A stretch of DNA of 64,000 bases from Escherichia phage RB3: sequence record KM606994. The stretch is one strand, 5' to 3'. A program made the translations under genes and the position numbers. The notes under the pieces were generated by a model. It was not told the origin of the DNA, did not search any database, and saw only the letters and a list, made by a program, of their open reading frames with translations. Positions within the stretch are counted from its first letter, which is position 1. Every line of letters starts with the position of its first letter. Shown here piece after piece: positions 35,424 through 36,251 of the stretch.

Positions 35424-35499
35424 TGGTCGAGGCAGTAGGGATCGAACCTACGACCCAGGACTTAGAAGGTCCTTGCTCTTCCTTCTGAGCTATGCCTCG
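35424..35499 (-). tRNA. tRNA-Arg (anticodon UCU)
   Basis: Hand-folded cloverleaf; anticodon loop CUUCUAA; CCA encoded. Confidence 0.8.
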
Positions 35500-35503
35500 T
35501 ATT

Positions 35504-35578
35504 TGGCGGACGTGATAGGATTCGAACCTATAACCAATCGCTTAACAGGCGATCGCTCTGCCATTGAGCTACACATCC
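35504..35578 (-). tRNA. tRNA-Asn (anticodon GUU)
   Basis: Hand-folded cloverleaf; anticodon loop CUGUUAA; CCA encoded. Confidence 0.7.
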
Positions 35579-35582
35579 AAAT

Positions 35583-35669
35583 TGGTGGGGAGTGATGGAG
35601 TCGAACCACCCGAGTCGCAATGACAATGGATTTACAGTCCACACCGCTACCTCTACGGGATAACTCCCC
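35583..35669 (-). tRNA. tRNA-Tyr (anticodon GUA), long variable arm
   Basis: 87 nt; anticodon loop CUGUAAA; T-arm GGTGG-TTCGACT-CCATC; CCA encoded. Confidence 0.65.
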
Positions 35670-35678
35670 TAATTAATT

Positions 35679-35753
35679 TGGTGGCCCTGGGTGGAATTGA
35701 ACCACCATCTGGCGATTATGAGTCGCTTGCTTGAACCTTCCAGCTACAGGGCC
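35679..35753 (-). tRNA. tRNA with CAU anticodon (Met or Ile2)
   Basis: Anticodon loop CUCAUAA; acceptor GGCCCTG/CAGGGCC; CCA encoded. Confidence 0.65.
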
Positions 35754-35754
35754 T

Positions 35755-35830
35755 TGGCGCTGATTGACGGAATCGAACCGCCGACATCCTCATTACAAGT
35801 GAGGTGCTCTACCTACTGAGCTAAATCAGC
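35755..35830 (-). tRNA. tRNA-Thr (anticodon UGU)
   Basis: Anticodon loop CUUGUAA; CCA encoded. Confidence 0.8.
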
Positions 35831-35835
35831 AAAAC

Positions 35836-35925
35836 TGGCGGAGGCGATAGGATTTGAACCTATGAGTCGCCGGAGCGACTGCCGGTTTTCAAGACCGGTG
35901 CATTAAACCACTCTGCCACGCCTCC
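35836..35925 (-). tRNA. tRNA-Ser (anticodon UGA), long variable arm
   Basis: 90 nt; anticodon loop CUUGAAA; CCA encoded. Confidence 0.8.
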
Positions 35926-35927
35926 AG

Positions 35928-36001
35928 TCTCCATACAAGGATTTGAACCTTGGACCTCCTGATCCCAAATCAGGCGCTCTACCAAACTGAGCTACACGGA
36001 G
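35928..36001 (-). tRNA. tRNA-Pro (anticodon UGG)
   Basis: Anticodon loop UUUGGGA; CCA not encoded. Confidence 0.75.
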
Positions 36002-36011
36002 TAAATTAAAT

Positions 36012-36085
36012 TGGAGCGGATAATGAGAATCGAACTCACATCATCAGATTGGAAGTCTGAGGTAATGCCATTATACGATATCCGC
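36012..36085 (-). tRNA. tRNA-Gly (anticodon UCC)
   Basis: Anticodon loop CUUCCAA; CCA encoded. Confidence 0.8.
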
Positions 36086-36090
36086 AAATT

Positions 36091-36177
36091 TGGTGCGAGA
36101 AGTGGGACTCGAACCCACAAGGAAATCATTCCGCAGCATTTTAAGTGCTGTGCCTTTACCAATTTGACCATTCTCGC
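36091..36177 (-). tRNA. tRNA-Leu (anticodon UAA), long variable arm
   Basis: 87 nt; anticodon loop CUUAAAA; CCA encoded. Confidence 0.8.
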
Positions 36178-36179
36178 GC

Positions 36180-36251
36180 TGGGAATAAAGGACTCGAACC
36201 TTTGCATCCTGGAATCAAAATCCAGTGCCTTACCAACTTGGCTAATTCCCA
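36180..36251 (-). tRNA. tRNA-Gln (anticodon UUG)
   Basis: Anticodon loop UUUUGAU; CCA not encoded. Confidence 0.75.

Follow-up and report, generated by a model that had tools for sequence, protein, structure and literature searches.

The ten-tRNA cluster of Escherichia phage RB3, a segB-free form of the T-even tRNA locus

Introduction

The transfer RNAs (tRNAs) encoded by bacteriophage T4 have classically been viewed as a supplement to those of the host, serving codons that the A+T-rich phage genome prefers. Their genes form a single cluster, transcribed in the order Gln-Leu-Gly-Pro-Ser-Thr-Ile, followed by segB, and then Arg, rnaD, and rnaC (NC_000866, 70908-72530). A single primary transcript of ~1.75 kb covers the T4 cluster; it starts at a middle promoter immediately before the tRNA genes and ends at a terminator that follows the species I RNA gene (PMC2330249). 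Here, we describe the corresponding locus in a 64,000-nucleotide stretch of Escherichia phage RB3 (sequence record KM606994; this whole stretch is referred to as the window), where ten tRNA genes are arrayed together with rnaD and rnaC.

The T-even tRNA regions have been compared before. Brok-Volchanskaya et al. (2008) published the RB3 cluster and mapped the tRNA regions of T4, T2L, RB1, and RB3 (PMC2330249). The same work reports that segB is absent in RB1, RB3, RB6, RB7, RB8, and RB9, and that in crosses between T4 and T2L the segB allele displaces T2L markers at nearly 100% efficiency. Yaung et al. (2015) subsequently listed ten tRNAs each for RB3, RB5, RB6, RB7, RB9, and RB10 (PMC4293622).

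Results

The RB3 tRNA array

ARAGORN places ten tRNA genes, and no more, in the 64-kb window. All lie between 35424 and 36251 on the minus strand, and as transcribed their order is Gln(UUG), Leu(UAA), Gly(UCC), Pro(UGG), Ser(UGA), Thr(UGU), CAU, Tyr(GUA), Asn(GUU), and Arg(UCU). All ten score above the gathering threshold (29 bits) of the Rfam tRNA covariance model (RF00005). Nine of these matches, at 59-74 bits with E values from 1e-10 to 1e-14, are far beyond chance, and tRNA-Tyr passes narrowly, with 30.2 bits and an E value of 0.028. An earlier sequence-only reading of the window had proposed the same ten genes; ARAGORN and Rfam return its order, anticodons, and coordinates unchanged, and both support its Asn and Tyr models, with a small Rfam margin for Tyr. 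Including rnaD and rnaC, which are annotated in the RB5 and RB3 records, twelve RNA genes are packed into ~1.1 kb with intergenic spacers of 1-10 nt:

36178-36251, minus strand: tRNA-Gln (UUG); ARAGORN, Rfam 67.4 bits; no encoded CCA, 1-base spacer (C) before Leu
36091-36177, minus strand: tRNA-Leu (UAA), class II; ARAGORN, Rfam; CCA encoded; 87/87 identical to T4
36012-36085, minus strand: tRNA-Gly (UCC); ARAGORN, Rfam; CCA encoded; 73/74 versus T4
35927-36001, minus strand: tRNA-Pro (UGG); ARAGORN, Rfam; no encoded CCA, 2-nt spacer (CT) before Ser; identical to T4 over 74 shared nt
35836-35925, minus strand: tRNA-Ser (UGA), class II; ARAGORN, Rfam; CCA encoded
35755-35830, minus strand: tRNA-Thr (UGU); ARAGORN, Rfam; CCA encoded; 75/76 versus T4; gene absent in T2L
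35679-35753, minus strand: CAU tRNA, probably of tRNA-Ile2 type; ARAGORN, Rfam; CCA encoded
35583-35669, minus strand: tRNA-Tyr (GUA), class II with phage-type variable arm; ARAGORN, Rfam 30.2 bits; CCA encoded
35504-35578, minus strand: tRNA-Asn (GUU); ARAGORN, Rfam 74.1 bits; CCA encoded; 75/75 versus T2L
35424-35499, minus strand: tRNA-Arg (UCU), of T2L and not T4 type; ARAGORN, Rfam; CCA encoded; 76/76 versus T2L, 51/82 versus T4
35302-35422, minus strand: rnaD (species 2 stable RNA); RB5 and RB3 annotation; 103/122 versus T4; ends ...GCACCA
35158-35296, minus strand: rnaC (species 1 stable RNA), tRNA-like; RB5 and RB3 annotation; 137/139 versus T4

The 3′ ends, read directly from the sequence, show an encoded CCA in eight of the ten tRNAs. 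Only Gln and Pro are without one, as the earlier reading had also stated: tRNA-Gln ends ...CCCAG, followed by a single C and the start of Leu, and tRNA-Pro ends ...GGAGA, followed by CT and the start of Ser. The list of open reading frames (ORFs) in the window contains neither segB nor any other credible ORF inside the array. The ORFs that do cross it, on both strands and of at most 86 amino acids, lie on top of tRNA genes and were therefore treated as spurious.

Identity with published RB3-group records

The window contains the published RB3 tRNA gene cluster (AJ884578, 1556 bp) in full and without a mismatch, at 36291-34736 on the minus strand; that record annotates the same twelve RNA genes. 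Across 1401 bp (window 35000-36400), RB5, RB6, RB7, and RB10 are 100% identical, RB9 is 99.9% identical, and RB14 is 99.1% identical; the genome records of RB5, RB6, RB7, RB9, and RB10 are KM606995-KM606999. The twelve RNAs are all annotated in RB5, RB6, RB7, and RB10. The RB5 record has them at matching positions, and when its annotation is transferred to the window the locus lies, as in T4, between e.8 and tRNA.2/tRNA.3/tRNA.4/ipI, with everything on one strand. We conclude that this is almost certainly the tRNA operon of an RB3-group T4-like coliphage (Tequatrovirus; RB3, RB5, RB6, RB7, RB9, RB10) in its segB-free form.

The ten-tRNA set is the usual one among T4-like coliphages. The contiguous CAU-Tyr-Asn-Arg block is covered to at least 80% in 376 phage records, many with an additional tRNA-His inserted, and the same ten genes occur in the same order in Shinka and other Tequatroviruses. 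The ten-gene order is kept at 97-99% identity in hundreds of Tequatrovirus genomes. We considered whether the set might be unusual and rejected this on the strength of the 376 records and Shinka. The RB3 group is set apart from RB14 and Shinka only by having no additional ORF downstream of rnaC.

Mosaic relationship to T4 and T2L

The RB3 locus occupies the same genomic position as the T4 cluster, and the 109 bp upstream of tRNA-Gln are identical in the two phages (109/109). The Leu, Gly, Pro, Ser, and Thr genes are identical or nearly so, and Gln and Pro are without an encoded CCA in both. T4 differs in having eight tRNAs, with no Tyr or Asn, and in carrying segB, a GIY-YIG homing endonuclease gene, between Ile and Arg. 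This is the T4 complement that the sequence-only reading had given when it proposed a different one here, and the T4 record bears out both points: at the segB position RB3 has a CAU-Tyr-Asn-Arg block of T2L type. At 47/77 and 51/82 identity, respectively, T4 Ile and Arg are not the same genes as the CAU and Arg tRNAs of RB3. T4 Ile is without an encoded CCA, as is T4 Ser, which ends ...CCTCCG followed by taa; the Ser CCA is encoded in RB3 and T2L.

T2L (AJ880101) shares with RB3 the lack of segB, the presence of rnaD and rnaC downstream of the array, and the CAU (75/75), Tyr (86/87), Asn (75/75), and Arg (76/76) genes. It differs in being without tRNA-Thr and in having two intervening ORFs, where RB3 has none: trna.1 separates Ser from CAU, and trna.2 separates Arg from rnaD. 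By sequence similarity, then, the RB3 array reads as a mosaic in which Leu, Gly, Pro, Ser, and Thr are T4-type and CAU, Tyr, Asn, and Arg are T2L-type.

The tRNA-Gln gene follows neither pattern. It matches T4 at 65/74 positions, and the nine differences, which also separate it from T2L because T2L has the T4-type anticodon arm, are all confined to that arm: a compensated stem swap plus positions 32 and 38. The RB3 gene has U32 and U38, like E. coli tRNA-Gln, and the T4 type has C32 and C38. This variant is neither rare nor new; it is the majority form, found at 99% identity or more in 289 records. With ~235 records, the T4 type is about as common. The dimorphism may stem from selection acting on this arm or from exchange with a different tRNA-Gln by recombination.

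The CAU tRNA

The sequence-only reading left open whether the CAU tRNA is an Ile2 or a Met, and the evidence resolves towards Ile2. When 5,426 complete E. coli genomes were searched, the genes most similar to it were annotated tRNA-Ile(CAU) genes (81.6% identity over the full 75 nt). When aligned with ileX, metT, and metU, it has C4:G69 and C5:G68 in common with E. coli ileX, and the whole anticodon stem-loop, GCGACTCATAATCGC, is identical in the two; the elongator Met genes metT and metU have T4:A69, A5:T68, and a different anticodon stem. The pairs 4:69 and 5:68 are identity elements for E. coli TilS, which is also sensitive to the anticodon stem (PMC11947777). The G1-C72 pair is formed, so the tRNA is not initiator-like. 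Because of these features, and because AUA is enriched in the phage ORFs (see below), we regard the gene as very probably an Ile2-type, lysidine-dependent AUA decoder.

The gene is labelled tRNA-Met in the RB3, RB5, T2L, and Shinka records, and ARAGORN, like the GenBank records, calls Met from the anticodon alone. Were it an elongator tRNA-Met, the phage would be without an AUA decoder. We think this very improbable, given that its closest E. coli relatives are tRNA-Ile(CAU) genes along the full length, that metT and metU differ from it at the acceptor pairs read by TilS and in the anticodon stem, and that AUA is 4.4-fold enriched. The annotators of RB14 already called the CAU tRNA at the matching position Ile, within a cluster 99.1% identical over 35000-36400. 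Both the elongator and the initiator Met assignments were thus rejected in favour of Ile2, and the gene is probably mislabelled in the RB3, RB5, T2L, and Shinka records, and presumably in others that contain it. A note in the RB14 annotation suggests that the gene is an ortholog of T4 tRNA-Ile; at 47/77 identity we rejected this too, and the gene is of the T2L/Vequintavirus type.

The CAU tRNA is identical (75/75) to the T2L ‘Met’ gene and to the CAU tRNA of LL12, an rV5-like Vequintavirus of another Caudoviricetes lineage. LL12 has a different tRNA gene order, and its tRNA-Tyr is 96.6% identical to that of RB3. The T-even phages hold two non-orthologous CAU tRNAs, one of T4/T6 type and one of RB3/T2L type. 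These comparisons point to gene-by-gene exchange of tRNAs between unrelated coliphages.

Within E. coli, the CAU tRNA is closest not to chromosomal ileX but to a tRNA-Ile(CAU) gene on the M19 chromosome (2290599-2291274). The latter gene lies ~200 bp downstream of an antitermination protein Q gene and is probably part of a lambdoid prophage. If it is indeed prophage-borne, temperate and virulent coliphages would carry related AUA decoders.

Structure and distribution of tRNA-Tyr

The single-sequence minimum free energy fold of tRNA-Tyr is not a cloverleaf (z = -0.9). A consensus fold of 11 sequences, including E. coli tyrU, gives a class II cloverleaf, and compensatory changes support 13 of its 24 pairs. 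This covariation, together with the function of the near-identical T6 and T5 genes (PMC13096335), led us to reject the possibility that tRNA-Tyr is a pseudogene. Two nucleotides separate it from its T6 counterpart, and it has exactly the variable arm and T arm of T5 tRNA-Tyr. Homologs with 80-97% identity are found in Tequatrovirus, Vequintavirus, Certrevirus, Phapecoctavirus, Felixounavirus, and Tequintavirus (T5-like) phages and in T4-like phages of Klebsiella, and a homolog in an Enterococcus Schiekvirus is ~78% identical.

Codon usage

To relate the array to codon usage, 95 non-overlapping ORFs of the window (19,210 codons) were compared with 46 annotated E. coli K-12 genes (14,635 codons). 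The cognate codons of the ten tRNAs make up 25.9% of codons in the phage ORFs and 14.1% in the E. coli sample, and they outrank the other codons in phage/host ratio (Mann-Whitney p = 2e-4). The ratios are as follows:

AGA: 7.6
AUA: 4.4
UCA: 3.1
GGA: 2.6
AAU: 2.4
UAU: 2.15
ACA: 2.1
UUA: 2.0
CCA: 1.4
CAA: 1.25

The cognate share is 30.1% on the plus strand, against 23.2% on the minus strand. If the T4 map is a guide, late structural genes would predominate on the plus strand and early genes on the minus strand. Tyr and Asn are also more abundant in the products of the phage ORFs than in those of the E. coli sample (4.7% versus 2.95% and 6.0% versus 4.1%), which fits the classical view of phage tRNAs as a supplement.

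Transcription signals

Two elements flank the twelve RNA genes:

36321-36345, minus strand: putative T4 middle-promoter-like element; MotA box TGCTTTA at 36345-36339, 12-nt spacer, and -10 element TATTAT at 36326-36321
35075-35107, minus strand: predicted strong intrinsic terminator; 10-bp stem (7 G-C pairs), GAAA loop, and T run, with the hairpin at 35107-35084, ~50 nt after rnaC

A generic sigma-70 promoter scan found no more sites than in shuffled sequence, and the putative promoter is called from its identity with T4 and not from that scan.

The stable RNAs rnaD and rnaC

The sequence-only reading had noted that the region from 35110 to 35420 has no ORF, contains tRNA-like elements, and may encode small stable RNAs. 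The window ORF list holds no credible ORF there, and rnaD and rnaC occupy it. Both fold more stably than shuffled controls (z = -4.55 for rnaC and -3.3 for rnaD). rnaC contains a canonical T arm, GGTTCGAATCC, and folding seven homologs together gives a consensus of 47 pairs, of which 12 show compensatory changes. In this fold a terminal stem joins the 5′ and 3′ ends, there are two hairpins, and the T arm abuts the 3′ strand of the terminal stem, so that the modelled architecture is tRNA-like. Neither rnaD nor rnaC matches an Rfam family: relaxing the search over 35000-35450 yielded nothing above threshold, only chance-level matches (tRNA-Sec, 16.6 bits; isrK, 16.5 bits). The covariation contradicts the acceptor pairing proposed by the tRNA-Sec match, since in rnaC the 3′ end pairs with the true 5′ end.

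Homologs of rnaD plus rnaC, at coverage of at least 80%, are present in 678 phage records, and the region in RB69 (Mosigvirus) is 95.4% identical. In many of the 678 records it has no annotation or is called ‘hypothetical protein’. These RNAs are thus conserved and structured, yet often unannotated or called protein-coding, and are without an Rfam family. In Karamvirus ZX13 and Enterobacter phage SonariX the rnaC homolog is inside a tRNA array, between tRNA-Trp and tRNA-Gly, and the SonariX copy is called a 95-nt ‘tRNA-Met’ by ARAGORN.

A candidate SegB site in tRNA-Asn

The preferred SegB site has the consensus GGTTCRANTCC...CCAR, with G6, A16, G18, A26, and A27 as distinguishing bases (PMC2330249). 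One segment of the RB3 array fits all the features given in the text of that report:

35502-35528, minus strand: candidate preferred SegB site of 27 bp, GGTTCGAATCCTATCACGTCCGCCAAA, at the 3′ end of tRNA-Asn

It carries the consensus and all five distinguishing bases, the comparison being with the text description of the site. Because of this fit, we interpret the RB3 locus as a SegB-sensitive, segB-free allele. The GGTTCRANTCC motif occurs in eight of the ten array tRNAs (all except Gly and Arg; between 35528 and 36200) and also in rnaC (35180), and for this reason rnaC may be a secondary cut site for SegB-type endonucleases.

An adjacent small gene

Between e.6 and e.8, at 34364-34540 on the minus strand, the window has a 58-amino-acid ORF (RB5_133, hypothetical protein) where T4 has e.7, of unrelated length (336 bp). 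It appears as a small gene replacement adjoining the tRNA operon.

Discussion

The RB3 locus illustrates how the tRNAs of T4-like phages suit the A+T-rich codon usage of their genomes. If it behaves as described for T4, the twelve genes would be transcribed as one ~1.2-kb precursor that starts at the MotA-type middle promoter (~36345-36321) and stops at the terminator (35107-35075). Processing would fall to host enzymes: RNase P would generate the 5′ ends, and exonucleases would trim the 3′ ends. The host CCA-adding enzyme would complete Gln and Pro, and host TilS would make lysidine on the CAU tRNA, which would then read AUA as Ile. The mature tRNAs would top up the host pool for codons that are far commoner in the A+T-rich phage genes than in those of E. 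coli, supporting fast translation, especially of late structural genes.

Several points weigh against this account. The tRNA region of T4 is described as dispensable for phage development (PMC2330249), so any benefit of the array would depend on host or conditions, and the processing route is carried over from T4 to the RB3 group. The tRNA-Tyr has a marginal Rfam score, and its near-identical T6 counterpart is reported to be relatively unstable (PMC13096335). The CAU tRNA has an unusual but conserved D loop, with G14 and C21 instead of A14 and A21. The other eight tRNAs follow a ‘rare NNA codon’ logic that does not extend to Tyr and Asn, which belong to two-codon boxes and fit only as extra supply for amino acids commoner in phage proteins. 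The E. coli side of the codon comparison is a sample of only 46 genes.

Tyr and Asn raise the question of whether part of the array is kept for another reason. RB3 carries a tRNA-Tyr of the T5/T6 type that a recent study has connected with evasion of the Septu and retron-Eco7 defences (Chihara et al. 2026, PMC13096335), and Tyr, perhaps with Asn, might be maintained mainly as an anti-defence spare for host tRNAs cut by Septu, by PtuAB of retron-Eco7, or possibly by nucleases directed at tRNAs with GUN anticodons, and not for codon usage. That study reports that overexpressed T6 tRNA-Tyr restores T6 growth, that deletion of the T6 tRNA-rich region increases sensitivity, that T4, having no tRNA-Tyr, cannot escape, and that T5 tRNA-Tyr withstands retron-Eco7 owing to its distinctive variable loop. 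The close match of the RB3 gene to both, the spread of its lineage across unrelated phage groups, as expected of a widely useful mobile gene, and the position of Tyr and Asn outside the NNA logic are all in keeping with such a role. However, Septu also cuts T6 tRNA-Tyr, at C48, wild-type T6 with a single copy is still restricted, and T6 escape needed SegB-driven amplification (PMC13096335), for which the RB3 cluster has no segB. We found no evidence of a nuclease that targets tRNA-Asn in phage defence, and the ~2.2-2.4-fold enrichment of UAU and AAU means that supply alone can explain both genes. An anti-defence role by analogy with T6 and T5 is therefore plausible, if short of probable, and would complement the supply of tRNAs for phage codons more than exclude it.

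A different view is that composition reflects the traffic of selfish elements and not selection on each tRNA: SegB-type endonucleases would cut the conserved T-arm motif, blocks of tRNA genes would be swapped, lost, and gained by homing and recombination in co-infection, and Tyr and Asn would be genes not yet replaced. The mosaic, with Leu, Gly, Pro, and Thr T4-like and CAU, Tyr, Asn, and Arg T2L-like and not orthologous to T4 Ile and Arg, speaks for this, as do the further tRNA combination of T6, the CAU tRNA identical to that of a Vequintavirus with another gene order, the preferred SegB site in tRNA-Asn, the efficiency of the segB allele in T4 x T2L crosses (PMC2330249), and the recurrence of GGTTCRANTCC in eight tRNAs and rnaC. 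Conservation of the ten-gene order at 97-99% identity in hundreds of Tequatrovirus genomes speaks against it, and the significant codon match argues for selection on the content of the array. The idea also covers how alleles change and not what the tRNAs do, and we judge it unlikely as an explanation of composition. The locus also illustrates how homing endonucleases reshuffle blocks of tRNA genes. A more speculative proposal, which we consider doubtful, is that Tyr, and perhaps Asn, would serve as spares against the tRNA-Tyr-cutting Septu and retron-Eco7 systems, and that homing of a T4-type segB would delete them because the preferred SegB cut site lies in the same block. If true, a selfish element would be set against phage immunity evasion at the tRNA locus. 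Supply of tRNAs for phage codons remains the reading that we prefer for the array as a whole.

The feature itself is ordinary and already known in every detail. Its sequence and map date from 2008, a second annotation followed in 2015, and hundreds of deposited phage genomes contain it; as a discovery it carries little weight. Among the T-even phages, T6 (NC_054907) has the same locus and flanking genes, and a tRNA-Tyr 2 nt apart from that of RB3 with an identical variable arm; it differs in that segB adjoins tRNA-Tyr and that its CAU tRNA is of the T4 type. The stretch of the T6 record that was examined has six tRNAs, Gln-Leu-Gly-Thr-CAU-Tyr, followed by the homing endonuclease gene, with no Pro, Ser, or Asn annotated. 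The eight-tRNA, segB-bearing cluster of T4 is thus only one of several alternative arrangements. Compared with the RB3, RB5, RB6, RB7, and RB10 records, the locus described here has no sequence difference, and the sole divergence is the label of the CAU tRNA, which we call Ile2-type, very probably, and not Met.

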